Made by a program: the position numbers and the translations under genes. From Candidatus Aenigmatarchaeota archaeon (GTDB lineage Archaea > Aenigmatarchaeota > Aenigmatarchaeia > CG10238-14 > SCSR01), in the NCBI GenBank assembly GCA_016187415.1, contig JACPJT010000001.1, positions 13,634 through 77,633 of the forward strand: a stretch of 64,000 bases of DNA, in the 5' to 3' direction. This document shows, in pieces, positions 4,719 to 54,042 of this stretch (within the stretch, counting starts at the first letter, position 1; every line of letters begins with the position of its first letter). The notes below the pieces were generated by a model that was not told the origin of the DNA, did not search any database, and saw only the letters and a list, made by a program, of their open reading frames with translations.

Positions 4719-6309
4719 GTGTCCCATACTGCGACAAAAACACTAGCCGAGAAAGCGGTTGAGCACGAATCTTATTCTTCTATACCAGATGGCTACCAAT
4801 CCGGTAAAACAAAATACATAATCGTAACAGGGAGTGTGATGTCCGGCGTTGGCAAAGGCACATTCTCCGGAGCATTGGCTTCGTTGTTGAGTTGTCATGG
4901 ATTCAAAGTGTCTCCCGTTAAATTCGATGGCTATATCAATTATGATGCTGGTACGTTGAATCCGTTTAGACATGGAGAAGTTTTTGTTTTGGGAGACGGT
5001 ACAGAGTGCGATTTAGATTTGGGTTCGTATGAAAGAGCGCTTCATAGAAACCTGACAAAAGACAATTACTTGACTGGGGGGAAGATCTTCAAAATCATCA
5101 TTGACAAAGAACGTGCAGGCAAATATCTGGGAAGAGACGTCCAGTTCATCCCGCATGTAACGGGCGAAATAAAGAATTTCTTACGCGAGCTTGCAACGAA
5201 GACAAGTGCCGATATAGTCTTGGTTGAAGTTGGCGGCACGGTCGGTGACTTGGAAAATTCTTATTTTGTAGAGGCTATGCGCGAGCTCAGATATGAAGAA
5301 GGCAGAGAAAACGTCATGTTTGTCAATGTGACTTACATAATTGAGCCGAATTCATTAAATGAATACAAAAGCAAAGCGGCTCAAATCGGAATAAGGCAGC
5401 TTATGGCATTGGGTGTACAGCCCGATATGATAATATGCAGATCGCAGACATCTGTTCCAAATTCGATAAAAGAAAAAATTAGCGTGTTCGGCGACGTCCC
5501 AATTGAGCGGGTGTACAATCTCCACGATTTTTCCAACATATATGAGATACCATTGATTCTTCGCGATGTCGGCCTCGACAAGGAGATATTCAAAATTCTA
5601 GGCGTATCTCCAAAAGAAAATAGCGACAAGATACTCAATTTTAAAAATTGGGAAAGTTTCGTGGAAAAAATAAAAGGTGCAAAGAAAGAGGTCGTAGTTG
5701 GAATAGCTGGCAAGTACACAAATGTCCACGACGCTTACTTGAGCATATTAAAGGCGCTGGAGCATGCTGCACCATATTTCGGTGCTAAAGTAAAAATAAA
5801 ATGGATCGAGGCGACAGACATAGAAGACGGGAAGATTTCTGCAGAAGAGGCTTTGAAAAATGTGGATGGCGTTATTGTTCCCGGTGGTTTTGGGAAAAGA
5901 GGAATTGAAGGCAAAATAAAAACCATTGAATATGTGCGGAAAAACAACATCCCTTATCTCGGTTTATGCTATGGAATGCAACTTGCTGTAGTCGAATTCG
6001 CCAGAAATGTATGCGGTTTGAATGGTGCCCACACGACAGAAGTGAATCCCGATACGGAGTGCCCGGTCATAGACATAATTCCGGAGCAGAAAGGTAAACT
6101 GAGTGAACCCAGAATTCCATAAAATACTGGAAGAGAAGGGATTGAGCTTGTCTGGAATCTATCCGGATAGGAATTTGGTGGAATTCATAGAAATACCTAA
6201 AAACAGATTCTTTGTCGCAACCCAGGCCCACGGCGAATTTACATCCAGACCATTGACACCCAGCCCGTTGTTTATGGGATTTGTTCAGGCGTGCTTAACA
6301 AGAAAATAA
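4719..6309 (+). pseudogene. pyrG: CTP synthase, split (4719..6122 + 6103..6309) by an internal deletion/frameshift
   Basis: TGSVMSGVGKG, HGEVFV, VPGGFG, GLCYGMQ; the expected GGTMRLG...ERHRHRYE segment is missing at ~6100 and the C-terminus (VNPEF...ATQAHGEF) continues in another frame; may be an assembly artefact. Confidence 0.85.
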
Positions 6310-6571: not shown

Positions 6572-7903
6572 TTGTACTCTCAAGATATTGAGTCGTTGCT
6601 CAACGCCAAGAAGATTAAGATTGGAGATAAAATTTTAGTAACTAAGGTCAATGACGAGTATGCAGGTATACTAATGCCCAGAATCAAGCTCGGCGATATT
6701 TCTTCAATCGTAATAAAGCTCTCAAACGGCTACAACATAGGCATAAAATATGACAAAGATGTGAAAATAAGGCGACTAGAGTCAGGTAAACCAATAAGAT
6801 TCAAACCAGCCGAAACAGTTCCAAGAAAAGACCCCGAAAAACCTACTGTATCGATATTGGGTTGCGGCGGAACTATAGCTTCTAGGGTAGAATACACTAC
6901 AGGAGCGGTATTTCCGGCATTCTCGCCTGCAGACCTGTTATTATCCTTCCCTGAATTGGGGGATATAGCCAATATTAAGGCTAGAAAGTTATTTGACCTT
7001 TTTTCAGAGGATATTACAGCTGAGCATTGGAAAATAATCGCTAACGAGATAATTAAAGAAATACAATCTGGTGTTGATGGTGTTGTTCTTATGCATGGTA
7101 CAGACACTATGCACTATACCGCAGCAGCTTTGAGCTTCATGCTAAGAGATTTACCAGTTCCTGTGATTTTGGTAGGCGCGCAGAGAAGTAGTGATCGTGG
7201 TAGTAGCGATAATCTTGTTAATCTGGTATCAGCTGTAGTCGCAGCAGCACAATCGAGTGTTGCAGAGGTTACCGTATGCATGCATGGAAGTATGAACGAT
7301 GATTTCTGTTATCTGCACCAAGCAACCAAGGTGAGGAAACTTCACACATCCAGAAGAGATGCATTTCAAAGCGTGAACGTAAAGCCTTATGCAAAAATTT
7401 TCTATCCTGACAAAAAAATTGAATATCTGCGAAATGATTACAAACTAAGAGAAAAGAGAACGGTAAAAATCGATGACAAATTGAATACTAATGTAGCACT
7501 AGTTTACACGTATCCTGGAATAAAACCAGAGTTCATACAATCTTTAAGAAATTTTGATGGTGTTGTTATTGCAGGTACAGGACTAGGACACGTTCCTACA
7601 AATCCAACAGGAGACAAATTCACACAAAGTCTGTTGCCAGCATTAAGAAATTTGATTCATTCTAATATCCCCGTTGTAATAGCGCCTCAGACGATATACG
7701 GCAGGTTGGATTTGAATATCTATGAAGCTGGACGCATGCTGAATGAAATTGGTGTGATTGGTGATGGTTGTGACTGGCTCCCCGAAGTTGCTCTCGTGAA
7801 ACTAATGTTTGTATTAGGAAAGACCAAAGATATGGATAAAGTCAGGGAAATGATGTTGACGAACTATGCAGGCGAGATAAGCGAGAGAACTGAAATAAGT
7901 TGA
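6572..7903 (+). CDS. gatD: Glu-tRNA(Gln) amidotransferase subunit D
   Basis: IKLSNGYNIG, GGTIASRV, HGTDTMHY, AQRSSDRGSSD, HTSRRDAF. Confidence 0.96.
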   Translation: MYSQDIESLLNAKKIKIGDKILVTKVNDEYAGILMPRIKLGDISSIVIKLSNGYNIGIKYDKDVKIRRLESGKPIRFKPAETVPRKDPEKPTVSILGCGGTIASRVEYTTGAVFPAFSPADLLLSFPELGDIANIKARKLFDLFSEDITAEHWKIIANEIIKEIQSGVDGVVLMHGTDTMHYTAAALSFMLRDLPVPVILVGAQRSSDRGSSDNLVNLVSAVVAAAQSSVAEVTVCMHGSMNDDFCYLHQATKVRKLHTSRRDAFQSVNVKPYAKIFYPDKKIEYLRNDYKLREKRTVKIDDKLNTNVALVYTYPGIKPEFIQSLRNFDGVVIAGTGLGHVPTNPTGDKFTQSLLPALRNLIHSNIPVVIAPQTIYGRLDLNIYEAGRMLNEIGVIGDGCDWLPEVALVKLMFVLGKTKDMDKVREMMLTNYAGEISERTEIS

Positions 7904-7907
7904 TATT

Positions 7908-9326
7908 ATGGAAGCTAAAATTGGGATTACAGACGGGAAACAGGCTTGGTTAAACCATTCTAATCAAAACCAAGTTTATTTTGCTTCCTTTAAAAAACAT
8001 GTGGGAAATGACCTCCTCCGAAAAGAGGATATGCTATTATTGGTAAATTACATGAGAAAGGTGATGTTAGATGGACAATCTAAATTTAAAGCAGAGCTAA
8101 CGCCAGAAGTTATTAGAAGACTCTATTGGGAAGATAAGAAATCGTTGCCAGAGATAGGAAAACTCTACAGAATTGACAGCGGTAGCTTGTATCGATGGAT
8201 GAAACAACATGGAATACACACTAGGAGTAAATTAGTTGCTGCTCAGCTACATAAAAAATTAACAATTCGCCCAGATAAGTTATATGAGTTATATTGGAAA
8301 AAGTCAATGACGACAAGTGAAATAGGAAAATTATATGACGTATCAGGTGCAGCCGTTCAGCATTTAATGCTTAAGCACAAAATACCTACACGAACTCCTT
8401 TACAAATTGGCTCGTCTAAAACAAAATCCCCATCTTACAAAATACTCCATCATTTGTACATAGTTGAACGAAAATCGACCATAAAAATAGGAAAACAATT
8501 AGGTGTTGCACAAGCCTCTGTACGTAAATGGCTGAAGAAATATAAAATATCTGTTAGAAGTCGCTCTGAAGCGTGCAGAGAATACACGAGAACATCCTTT
8601 TCAGGAGATAAAACTGAGAAATCTTATATGCTTGGATTTTGCGTTGGTGACGCATACGTTTCTAAACGTTACCAGAGTATAGATATACATACAACAACTA
8701 CACATCCAGCGATGATCAAACTTTTTCATACAACATTTTCAGGATACGGTCACCCTTCGAAGTATGCTAGAAGCGGTACTCTACAATATGAATGGGCACT
8801 TCGATGCAGTTTAGATCAATCATTTTCATTTCTTTTAGAAAAATACAAAAGATTGATACCAGATTGGGTTCTTGAAGACGATACTACTTTTTATTCATTC
8901 TTAGCAGGCTATGCGGATGCTGAAGGTTGCTGGATGGTAATTAAATCGCATAAGGACGGCATAGGAGCTTTATTCGAAATTCGGAGTAGAGATGTAAAAG
9001 TTTTAGAAACAATCAAAGCGGAATTAGAAAAGTACGACTATCATCCTACTTTTGGTTTATGCAGTGGGTCGCTACATTTTGTACGTTTGTCTAGAGCCAG
9101 TGAAATTAGAGAACTTGCTAAAAAATTACTCTCATTTTCTAAACATGACGAGAAAATAGAAAAAATGCAGTTCATTCTTGATATCGAAAAAGAGAAAAGT
9201 TGGTCTGAAATTAGACCTAAATTACTAGAATTAAAAGACAAAATTAGGAGTCAAGTTCTTGGGTGTGTACTGAAAGCTGAAGGCTTGTATAAAGAGAAAC
9301 AAAGAATGGAGGTGATGCAACTTTGA
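7908..9326 (+). CDS. free-standing double-motif LAGLIDADG homing endonuclease with three N-terminal HTH repeats (true start possibly 8031)
   Basis: Repeats LY...K.S..EIGK.Y/LG......W/L...H/Y.I..R; motifs YMLGFCVGDA and FLAGYADAEG; AT-rich; GAGG SD before ATG 8031. Confidence 0.85.
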   Translation: MEAKIGITDGKQAWLNHSNQNQVYFASFKKHVGNDLLRKEDMLLLVNYMRKVMLDGQSKFKAELTPEVIRRLYWEDKKSLPEIGKLYRIDSGSLYRWMKQHGIHTRSKLVAAQLHKKLTIRPDKLYELYWKKSMTTSEIGKLYDVSGAAVQHLMLKHKIPTRTPLQIGSSKTKSPSYKILHHLYIVERKSTIKIGKQLGVAQASVRKWLKKYKISVRSRSEACREYTRTSFSGDKTEKSYMLGFCVGDAYVSKRYQSIDIHTTTTHPAMIKLFHTTFSGYGHPSKYARSGTLQYEWALRCSLDQSFSFLLEKYKRLIPDWVLEDDTTFYSFLAGYADAEGCWMVIKSHKDGIGALFEIRSRDVKVLETIKAELEKYDYHPTFGLCSGSLHFVRLSRASEIRELAKKLLSFSKHDEKIEKMQFILDIEKEKSWSEIRPKLLELKDKIRSQVLGCVLKAEGLYKEKQRMEVMQL

Positions 9327-10788
9327 GAAATATTAATTACAAAAGTATCAGGCTGAAGGCTGGACTCGAAAGTTAACAACCGGGTAAATCCACCAACAGC
9401 TTGAGGTAAATCGAAAACTTTTCTGTAGTTGTTCTACAGCTATGAAGGAAAAAGTACCTATCATGACAATATCTAGACGTCAACACCCAGTTGCATCGGA
9501 AATGGGCTTGATAGACACAGCTGCGCAATTTGAATATTTACGCGATAGAACTTTCCATTACCAAGTGTTCAACAATGAAAATTGTCTCGTTGAAGTTGAT
9601 TGTGAACCACCACACAATTTGAATCCTGAGGCTTTAGAGATTGCTCTACAAATTGCACTATTGCTCAATTGCGAGATTCTAAATGAGATTCATGTCATGA
9701 GAAAAACTGTTATTGACGGCAGTAATACAAGCGGATTTCAACGTACGGTAATTGTAGGATTAAACGGTCACATTAGTTACAAAGGTAAAAGAATTCTGAT
9801 AACACAGGTAACTTTGGAAGAAGACGCAGCAGCGATTGTCGATGAAGAGAATGGTAAAGTGGTGTATCGATTAAATCGCCTAGGGGTTCCATTGGTAGAA
9901 ATTGACACAGGAATTCTGGAAGGATACTCACCTCAAGAAATCCAAGAGATTGCCTATTTAATTGGTATAATAGCTCGTTCAACAACTAAAACAAAACATG
10001 GCATAGGTTCAATCAGGCAGGATGTCAATGTCAGCATAAGAAACGGACCGAGAGTAGAGGTTAAAGGCATGCAAGAATTGGGCATGCTGGCGAAGGTTGT
10101 TGAATTGGAAGCCCAGAGACAAACGAAGGAGAAAATCAAAGAAGAAACCCGTGCGGCAAACCCCGACGGTACGACAAGGTTTCTAAGACCTTTGCCCGGA
10201 GCCAGCAGGATGTATCCCGAGACCGATATACCGCCTGTGGTGCTTTCGAAGGAATACATCGATGAAATCAAAAAGAGTTTGCCAGAGCCTTGGACGAACA
10301 AAATTGAACGATTCAAATCCAAATTAAAATTGCCCGATGTGCTGGCAAAGGAAATACTTGGATCAGAATATCTTGATTTGTTTGAAAGGATTGTCGCCAA
10401 AACGAAAGTGGATCCCACTATTGTTGCTAACACATTTGTATCAGTTGTCAAGGATTTGGTTCGAAGGGAGAAAGTGGAGATTAACAGGATACAGGAGCAC
10501 AGGTTCTTCGAACTTTTCGAGTCTCTAGGGGAAAAGAAATTCGTCAAGGAAGCGATGCCTGAGATTATAAAATATCTTGCGGCATATCCGCAGAATGGTG
10601 TAGCTGATGCGCTGAATGAATTGGATTTGAAGCCGATGACATCAGAAGAAGTTCGTGAAATTGCGAAAGGAATTCTTACGCAACCAAATATGCCATTCGA
10701 AAAAGCATACGGGATTGTTATGAGCAAGGTTAGAGGGAAGATAGATGCTCAGGAAGTCATGAAGATTGTCAAGAGTATGGTCAAATAG
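9323..10788 (+). CDS. gatE: Glu-tRNA(Gln) amidotransferase subunit E, join(9323..9370,9388..10788); short form lacking the AspRS-like insertion
   Basis: GGAGGTGA SD then TTG: MRNINYKSIRLKAGLE + IHQQLEVNRKLFCSC in frame with 9442; MRKTVIDGSNTSGFQRT, LNRLGVPLVEI, RPLPGASRMYPETD. Confidence 0.93.
9371..9387 (+). other. putative 17-nt bulge-helix-bulge micro-intron in gatE mRNA
   Basis: AGTTAACAACCGGGTAA separates GGA CTC GAA from ATC CAC CAA CAG; contains an in-frame TAA; CTCG/CGGG helix flanked by AAA and TAAA bulges. Confidence 0.75.
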
Positions 10789-32022: not shown

Positions 32023-32113
32023 GCTCAGGTGGCAGAACGGCTATGCAGACTAGATTATCTAGGCAGAAGCGCCTGCAGAGCGTCGCAAGCGAGTTCGACT
32101 CTCGCCCTGAGCT
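32023..32113 (+). tRNA. tRNA-Cys(GCA) with 20-nt intron at position 27/28 (32049..32068)
   Basis: GCTCAGG/CCTGAGC acceptor; removing the intron gives GGCGC-CTGCAGA-GCGTC; BHB-like AGA/AAG bulges; immediately upstream of cysS. Confidence 0.88.
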
Positions 32114-32147
32114 CAATAATTTAATTTAAAACCGTCAATTACTCATA

Positions 32148-53911: not shown

Positions 53912-53999
53912 GGGCGCGTAGCTTAGCCTGGTGGAGCAATCAAATTGGCTCATTCGACTGATACTCGATAGGCCGAGAGTTCAAATCTCTCCGTGCCCA
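53912..53999 (+). tRNA. tRNA-Ile(GAT) with 14-nt intron at 27/28 (53940..53953)
   Basis: GAGC/GCTC helix with AAT and ATT bulges; spliced arm ATCGA-CTGATAC-TCGAT. Confidence 0.9.
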
Positions 54000-54042
54000 C
54001 TATTTATTTAAATCGGACGCACAAATACAATTTAGTGGATAT

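Follow-up and report, generated by a model that had tools for sequence, protein, structure and literature searches.

In cyanophage S-PM2, F-CphI is reportedly found beside the group I intron of psbA. The concept of collaborative homing and the case of mobE with the I-TevIII intron in phage T4 are described in passages of PMC2790892 and PMC6083498, and archaeal mRNA introns of the bulge-helix-bulge (BHB) type, 16-44 bp in length, are described for cbf5 in sections of PMC2738675. Here the gatD-gatE junction of a Candidatus Aenigmatarchaeota archaeon was analyzed, which lies in a 64,000-nt stretch of its genome (the window; coordinates refer to it unless another contig or locus is named). The junction is occupied by a free-standing homing endonuclease gene (HEG, 7908-9326), and the beginning of the adjoining gatE is split by a 17-nt insert that is very probably a BHB intron. 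The two probably form one mobile unit.

Collaborative homing, the cbf5 mRNA introns and the nuclease-bearing BHB introns of archaeal rRNA are already known separately, and it is their combination that appears to be new. In a search of the open literature, with subscription journals outside its scope, cbf5 was the only archaeal gene found with a BHB-intron mRNA, and neither a BHB intron paired with a free-standing HEG nor a BHB intron in gatE was found. An earlier reading of the window had presented the whole arrangement as apparently new. This was too broad with respect to BHB introns in mRNA, which were known from cbf5, and held, in the literature searched, for their pairing with a free-standing HEG.

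The source genome (G000) comprises 735 kb on 10 contigs, is 93.9% complete and was obtained from groundwater metagenomes. Homologs of the HEG were sought in 61 genomes (G000 and 60 relatives). A class-wide search for gatE gave matches in 344 of 371 genomes, the best 150 of the 344 matches being listed. A metagenome scan with an alignment of the HEG yielded 80 loci, and four of these (L054, L055, L056 and L119) carried the gene order gatD-HEG-gatE. With G000 and its same-genus relative G005, five distinct loci of this order were compared (G000, L054, L119/L055, G005 and L056).

Organization of the gatD-gatE junction

The following features were assigned to the junction.

6572-7903, plus strand: gatD, Glu-tRNA(Gln) amidotransferase subunit D (Pfam Asparaginase 3.5e-59, Asparaginase_C, GatD_N)
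7908-9326, plus strand: HEG, 472 aa (open reading frame [ORF]; profile, family and fold evidence)
8103-8573, plus strand: three helix-turn-helix (HTH) repeats, about residues 66-222 (Pfam matches and three three-helix units in the model)
8610-9191, plus strand: LAGLIDADG core, about residues 235-428 (motif 1 ...GFCVGD248A, motif 2 ...AGYADAE339G)
9308-9316, plus strand: Shine-Dalgarno-like sequence GGAGGTGAT for gatE, within the 3' end of the HEG (read from the sequence)
9323-9370, plus strand: gatE exon 1, 16 codons, TTG start, ending in GGA CTC GAA (GLE)
9371-9387, plus strand: BHB-like micro-intron, 17 nt (independent assemblies; L054 and L119/L055 have homologous inserts in the same position)
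9361-9392, plus strand: splicing motif (minimum free energy fold -20 kcal/mol, z -2.57)
9348-9355 with 9397-9404, plus strand: outer exon-exon helix of 8 bp closing the motif (fold)
9388-10788, plus strand: gatE exon 2, 466 codons and stop, intact (GatB_N 7e-49, GatB_Yqey)

The ATG of the HEG follows the gatD stop codon at a spacing of 4 nt, and its TGA (9324-9326) overlaps the TTG start codon of gatE (9323-9325). In genus members lacking the HEG the gatD stop overlaps the gatE ATG. Exon 1 of gatE (9323-9370) reads MRNINYKSIRLKAGLE, and the frame restarts at 9388 with IHQQLEVNRKLFCSCS; at the equivalent position of L054 the gatE TTG is preceded by GGGGTGAG. The insert contains a TAA at 9374-9376, which ends the upstream gatE frame, and another TAA at 9385-9387, right before ATC, which ends the downstream frame. 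With stops in both frames there is therefore no workable window for a frameshift. Exon 2 contains zero stops and is 70-80% identical to that of genus relatives, and gatE is present as a single copy in G000.

The sequence-only reading had placed an ORF with three HTH units and a double LAGLIDADG core between gatD and gatE, its stop overlapping the TTG, and the ORF, fold and homolog evidence agree with this. The layout (7908-9326 compared with 9371-9387) likewise bears out that the ORF is free-standing and lies outside the intron. The same reading had put the insert 45 nt later; it is indeed close by, at a distance of 44 nt from the stop codon or 48 nt of exon 1.

The insert was recovered in other assemblies of metagenomic reads. 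Logan contigs of runs X1, X3 and X4, all from a single study that is possibly the source of G000, spanned the 17-nt insert with 0 differences. A 1389-nt contig of run X5, from another study, aligned gap-free to positions 8124-9460 and differed there in 47 letters (96.5% identical). Because the insert was reproduced in four runs of two studies, it is not an assembly error.

Upstream of the junction, pyrG (CTP synthase, 4719-6309) is frame-broken, and about 40 residues of its GATase domain are gone. At 6101/6102 the metagenome-assembled genome (MAG) lacks 125 letters that are present in the X1 and X3 contigs; this break is an assembly deletion or a minor variant. A second intron in pyrG at about position 6100 is ruled out by these additional letters.

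The gatE junction in relatives

The GLE|[ILV]H junction was uninterrupted in 29/29 other gatE loci inspected, in agreement with the earlier claim that the 17-nt insert splits the GLE|IHQQL motif. Among 30 loci only that of G005 has GHE in place of GLE, and this change lies 4 nt from the intron site. gatE was found in 109 of 118 order-level genomes, and G000 gave the sole full-length match without an upstream extension of the open frame. Three suspiciously short frames occurred among the listed matches of the class-wide search, and all were intact on inspection.

Inserts at the identical site were present in three of the five distinct gatD-HEG-gatE loci. The insert of L054 is 26 nt long and lies precisely between GAA and ATT CAC; the HEG of this locus is 63% identical to that of G000. 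The insert of L119/L055 is 21 nt long, has the same position and contains an in-frame TGA, and here the HEG is 41% identical to that of G000. L056, with a HEG of 35% identity, has no insert. None was found in the genomes of 56 relatives that have gatE without an adjacent HEG. The survey of gatDE loci that had been proposed from the sequence thus showed a strong co-occurrence of HEG and insert (3/5 compared with 0/56).

The homologous exon 1 is open over 16 codons in L054 and 19 codons in L119, and exon 2 is open over 466-487 codons in the three intron lineages. Identity to G000 among these lineages is 59-69% for gatE and 41-63% for the HEG. Since both exons are open in three diverged lineages, the interrupted gatE has remained under selection, and it is very unlikely to be a pseudogene.

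In all three intron lineages the Leu codon is CTC, which provides the exon strand of the central helix of the splicing motif. The exact intron-less junction with CTC occurred in none of the 371 genomes of the class, and a junction with 1 mismatch in 20 occurred in 33 of them; potential targets are therefore common. A degenerate pattern of intron-bearing gatE was also searched for in genome contigs. The archaeal matches checked among the best 80 of 119 (L210 and L211) were not gatE, and this search was uninformative on other carriers.

Two length forms of GatE were observed within the order. Proteins of the G000 type have about 480-520 aa, whereas those of several sister genera (e.g., G028, G029, G031 and G037) have about 620 aa; the difference is an inserted segment of about 130 aa, which the shorter form lacks.

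Structure of the insert and the splicing machinery of the host

In G000 the outer helix h is formed by 9361-9364 with 9389-9392 (UGGA/UCCA) and the central helix H by 9365-9368 with 9381-9384 (CUCG/CGGG). The 5' bulge is AAA (9369-9371), the 3' bulge is UAAA (9385-9388), and helix h' is weak (GUU/AAC). The insert of L054 forms a canonical hBHBh' motif with outer helix UGGA/UUCA, central helix CUCG/CGAG, bulges AAA and CUA and an inner helix of 6 bp, and canonical cuts in it give back GLE|IHQQL. L119 has the same two helices as L054 and G000, with a 3' bulge of 4 nt. A canonical BHB motif, with two 3-nt bulges flanking a 4-bp helix and with outer helices, is complete in L054; G000 and L119 have the 4-bp helix and both outer helices but depart from it in their 4-nt 3' bulge and weak h'. 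Across the three aligned introns 24/24 pair cells were kept, compared with 9-54% for slid partners. Two one-sided changes of the intron keep the pairing, namely CGGG/CGAG opposite exon CUCG and UCCA/UUCA opposite exon UGGA. The kept helices and the canonical motif of L054 agree with the earlier interpretation of the insert as a BHB micro-intron, for which splicing is predicted.

Strict enumeration of BHB motifs around the insert gave no canonical motif that removes 17 nt. The cut rule stated for cbf5 places the cuts between bulge nucleotides 2 and 3 (in a section of PMC2738675). From the sequences, one common rule would suit all three introns: the 5' cut falls 2 nt past the central helix and the 3' cut a single nucleotide short of the outer helix, the only 3' position that fits all of them. 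Taken together, the comparison makes it very probable that the 17-nt insert is a real BHB intron spliced by the host.

G000 encodes one tRNA-splicing endonuclease EndA of the alpha type (212 aa, contig C6, TIGR00324, 122 bits). Single-subunit EndAs of DPANN archaea with an extra loop have been linked to disrupted tRNA genes (in a passage of PMC5829648). The ligase required for BHB splicing, RtcB, is encoded on the minus strand at G000:C2:140922-143801 (L269:323-3202; 514 bits); within its 959-aa ORF, residues 254-711 (Intein_splicing) make up an intein of about 458 aa. ARAGORN reported introns in about 16 of 36 tRNA genes of G000, most of them 6-40 nt long. Nine of these introns lie at the canonical position; in the canonical register, all 4 pairs of the helix were formed in 2/9 and 3 of 4 pairs in 6/9. 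As the helices of the tRNA introns are mostly imperfect, relaxed motifs are routine in G000. Nothing on 4-nt bulges was found in PMC4090602. A scan of the G000 genome for BHB geometry combined with ORF fusion gave 1147 candidates, compared with 810 under a decoy pairing rule, and was uninformative on further mRNA introns.

The 5' exon of the intron-bearing tRNA-Ser(CGA) gene (G000:C6:194716-194810) ends in CUCGAA. The same six letters end gatE exon 1 in all three intron lineages (9365-9370 in the window), and the gatE mRNA site may mimic a tRNA substrate, or the identity may be due to chance. Two other ARAGORN calls in the window, a 'tRNA-Stop (tta)' at 32023-32114 and a tRNA with a 4-base anticodon at 53912-54000, probably reflect the misreading of tRNA genes that contain introns or are disrupted in some other way.

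The endonuclease and its relatives

With the HEG protein of G000 alone, Pfam gave a weak match to LAGLIDADG_3 (E 0.0047) and matches to HTH_28, HTH_23, HTH_17 and Sigma70_r4 at residues 71-100, 127-150 and 188-213. LAGLIDADG_3 (PF14528) was matched by 49 and LAGLIDADG_1 by 19 of 61 HEG homologs. Searched against the PDB, a profile built from these 61 homologs identified I-AniI (6.7e-8) and members of the I-OnuI group. The AlphaFold (AF2) model of the protein (pLDDT 86.7) has three three-helix units followed by a duplicated core of a helix plus four strands, in line with the duplicated alpha-beta-beta-alpha-beta-beta-alpha fold of solved enzymes. The best Foldseek matches of the model were E-DreI, I-AniI, bI3 maturase, I-SmaMI and I-Tsp061I, and among the 50 matches listed all belonged to the LAGLIDADG family (homing endonucleases, engineered variants and bI3 maturase), with E values down to 5e-9. 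Each LAGLIDADG motif terminates in a conserved acidic residue. In motif 1 (G247, D248) this is D248, which is invariant among the 61 homologs; in motif 2 it is E339, which is present in at least 90%, and D337 is invariant. By profile and modeled fold the ORF is a monomeric, two-domain LAGLIDADG homing endonuclease with an N-terminal triple-HTH extension, and DNA cleavage is predicted for it.

The distribution of the HEG is patchy. Homologs were found in 13 of the 61 genomes including G000 (12 of the 60 relatives), and only G000 and G005 among these 13 have the gene at gatDE, in G005 with the same junctions to gatD and gatE as in G000. Other copies adjoin genes for MetRS, RtcB, Dph2 and fructose-bisphosphatase-like and pyrophosphatase-like proteins, these neighbors being named by eye from N-terminal sequences.

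Several further observations were made on this family. Members L008, L010, L011, L016, L017, L004, L060 and L067 directly flank conserved genes and are often co-oriented with them, with overlapping stop and start codons; their neighbors, again assigned by eye, include a fructose-bisphosphate aldolase/phosphatase-like gene and one encoding an LPLHYG motif. G000 has a second, very distant homolog (L002, C2:179728-180339; 28% identity, E 6e-9, 359-aa frame), which forms the longest branch on the HEG tree. Internal stops or splits were present in L073, L077, L127, L130, L011 and L017, as expected of decaying copies in a homing cycle. In L119 (2408-3847), and likewise in L055, the HEG frame lacks the usual stop and runs on for about 100 nt, in a frame other than that of gatE, through exon 1 and the 21-nt intron. 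In L056 (1129-2456) gatD is separated from the HEG by three small ORFs, tandem paralogs that encode hydrophobic proteins of 101-128 aa with a common C-terminal IWIYDKV motif.

Joint inheritance of the HEG and the intron

In a tree of 91 HEG homologs the intron-linked HEGs (G000, L054 and L055/L119) formed one clade (SH-aLRT 98), and the intron-less HEGs at gatDE (G005 and L056) formed a separate clade (SH-aLRT 100). The HEGs of G000 and L054 are 63% identical and their gatE genes 69%, while the HEGs of G000 and G005 are 39-41% identical and their gatE genes 74%; HEG similarity is uncoupled from host similarity.

The gatD genes of L055 and L119 are 11% different (154 of 1359 nt). Upstream of gatD there is no positional match between them, 701 of 1045 positions being different. 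The picture changes 75 nt ahead of the gatD stop: from there until L055 ends, the two contigs have just 2 differences in 1546 nt. This near-identical tract takes in the HEG and continues through exon 1 and the intron as far as 54 nt into exon 2, and it points to a recent joint transfer of HEG and intron. A sliding comparison of gatE identity between G000 and G005 showed no signal of co-conversion, these species being too diverged. From these comparisons the HEG and the intron are probably one mobile unit.

Possible mechanism and alternatives

The explanation preferred here, to which about an even chance is given, is a two-part selfish element at the gatD-gatE junction. The first part would be the HEG, placed precisely where gatD stops and gatE starts, and read within the operon. 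The second would be a BHB micro-intron of 17, 26 or 21 nt without an ORF, located 48-57 nt past the HEG between the GLE and the IH codons of gatE. Host EndA would excise the intron from the mRNA, and RtcB would join the exons and restore gatE. HEG and intron would be inherited and transferred between genomes as a single tract, as the comparison of the loci shows. In gatE without an intron, the nuclease would cut at the position of the intron or close to it; the intron, where present, would split this site and protect its carrier. Such a scheme would correspond to the collaborative homing of phages, here with an archaeal BHB intron. The protection of the carrier, considered by itself, is plausible, though slightly less than an even bet; the GHE variant of G005 and the exclusive association of the intron with the HEG favor it. 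More tentatively, the pair may be an archaeal counterpart of the proposed first teaming of a homing endonuclease and an intron, in which the intron shields the essential gatE of its carrier and the nuclease drives the intron between species.

Several observations weigh against this element. The comparison of introns comprises only three independent lineages (G000, L054 and L119/L055). Compensatory double changes were not found across the three introns, because the 5' strands are invariant coding sequence. If the cbf5 cut rule applied, 16 nt would be lost from G000 and 20 nt from L119, which would put gatE out of frame, and no tRNA intron of G000 was better fitted by a 4-nt than by a 3-nt 3' bulge. 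L055 ends 54 nt past the intron, and the tract that it shares with L119 could be a chimeric metagenome contig. G005 and L056 have the HEG at gatDE and no intron, and the HEG can therefore persist there without it; the collaborative pair of the sequence-only reading held with respect to joint inheritance and the shared tract, while these two loci argue against a strict dependence. Finally, the HEG insertion point is an equally good candidate target of the nuclease.

LAGLIDADG genes usually interrupt their own target. If this applied here, the nuclease would recognize the HEG-less gatD/gatE junction, its own insertion would destroy that site, and an intron that arose once would ride in the co-conversion tract 48-57 nt away. 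A HEG-less junction ATGGATAAAAAAAT(A/C)AATTA is common to 5 of 8 genus members without the HEG, and the second HEG clade (G005 and L056) occupies the same insertion point without an intron, as would be expected of such a passive intron. The tract shared by L055 and L119 covers both candidate sites and hence does not discriminate between them. However, the intron was retained by all three members of its HEG clade despite HEG identities of 41-63%, and it was never seen without the HEG in the genomes and loci surveyed. It would also be an odd coincidence, if the intron site were irrelevant, that G005 with its HEG and no intron is the sole GHE of 30 loci. A passively carried intron is thus considered unlikely, although a serious contender. 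The events could also have occurred in a different order: a larger BHB intron that held the HEG may have shrunk by deletion to the micro-intron, or the present pair may precede entry of the HEG into the intron. A section of PMC2738675 describes archaeal rRNA introns that derive from HEG-bearing ones and have no ORF, and HEG and intron are co-inherited 48 nt apart. Yet each of the five loci has the HEG ahead of exon 1 at the same junctions, and in none is it inside the intron; either order is improbable.

It is hardly credible that gatE is instead a pseudogene or a split gene, that it is read by ribosomal bypass or frameshifting, or that the insert arose by misassembly. An assembly error is indeed present in this MAG 3 kb upstream, in pyrG (125 nt missing), and a strict BHB cut misframes gatE of G000. 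On the other hand, the insert was found in four runs of two studies, three diverged lineages have kept an intact exon 1 and an intact exon 2 of 466-487 codons, and no other copy of gatE exists in G000. Frameshifting is opposed by the stops in both frames within the insert, and bypass by the lack of matching take-off and landing codons. The first start codon of exon 2 falls past the conserved IHQQL...KLFCSCS block.

Significance

With splicing as predicted, gatE would be a second archaeal gene with a BHB intron in its mRNA, in a lineage different from that of cbf5. The loci provide comparative evidence that a BHB intron travels between genomes with a HEG lying outside it. If the immunity holds, collaborative homing would extend from the group I introns of phages to protein-spliced archaeal introns, and host-spliced BHB introns in protein-coding genes could spread by homing. 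The pair would then also offer a testable origin for nuclease-bearing BHB introns, as a stage preceding those of rRNA. The three introns, one canonical and two with a 4-nt bulge, are natural substrates for probing the choice of cut sites by a single-subunit EndA of the DPANN type. The element furthermore adds a family of HTH-extended LAGLIDADG enzymes, which occur beside several other conserved genes.

Comparison with known systems

The locus resembles the collaborative homing systems of phages in that a free-standing endonuclease gene adjoins an ORF-less intron in a conserved gene and is inherited together with it. The phage introns are self-splicing group I introns, whereas the intron in gatE is a protein-dependent BHB micro-intron of 17-26 nt. 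Furthermore, the host is not a phage but a cellular, DPANN-like archaeon, and the enzyme is a LAGLIDADG protein with HTH repeats that may cleave the intron-less site.

The intergenic seg and mob genes of T4-like phages are also placed between conserved genes, are patchily distributed and show co-conversion of their flanks (passages of PMC2988022 and PMC10448857). They encode GIY-YIG or HNH nucleases in phage genomes, in contrast to the LAGLIDADG enzyme on an archaeal chromosome.

The crenarchaeal cbf5 intron is similar with respect to the intron itself, being a BHB-like and often relaxed motif of 16-44 bp in a protein-coding gene that is removed by EndA (parts of PMC2738675). It occurs in Crenarchaeota with a heterotetrameric EndA, whereas the intron described here lies in gatE of small-genome groundwater archaea, with a single alpha-type EndA of 212 aa in G000. 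The cbf5 intron has no linked nuclease gene and, according to PMC2738675, is too short to encode one; at gatE a HEG is linked to the intron.

The BHB introns of archaeal rRNA, such as those of I-DmoI, I-PorI and I-Tsp061I, share the combination of a LAGLIDADG nuclease with a BHB intron, and I-Tsp061I matched the HEG model with a TM-score of 0.69 on the target. In these introns the nuclease gene lies inside the intron and the host gene encodes rRNA. At the gatD-gatE junction it lies outside, 48 nt upstream, and the nuclease carries an additional triple-HTH module.

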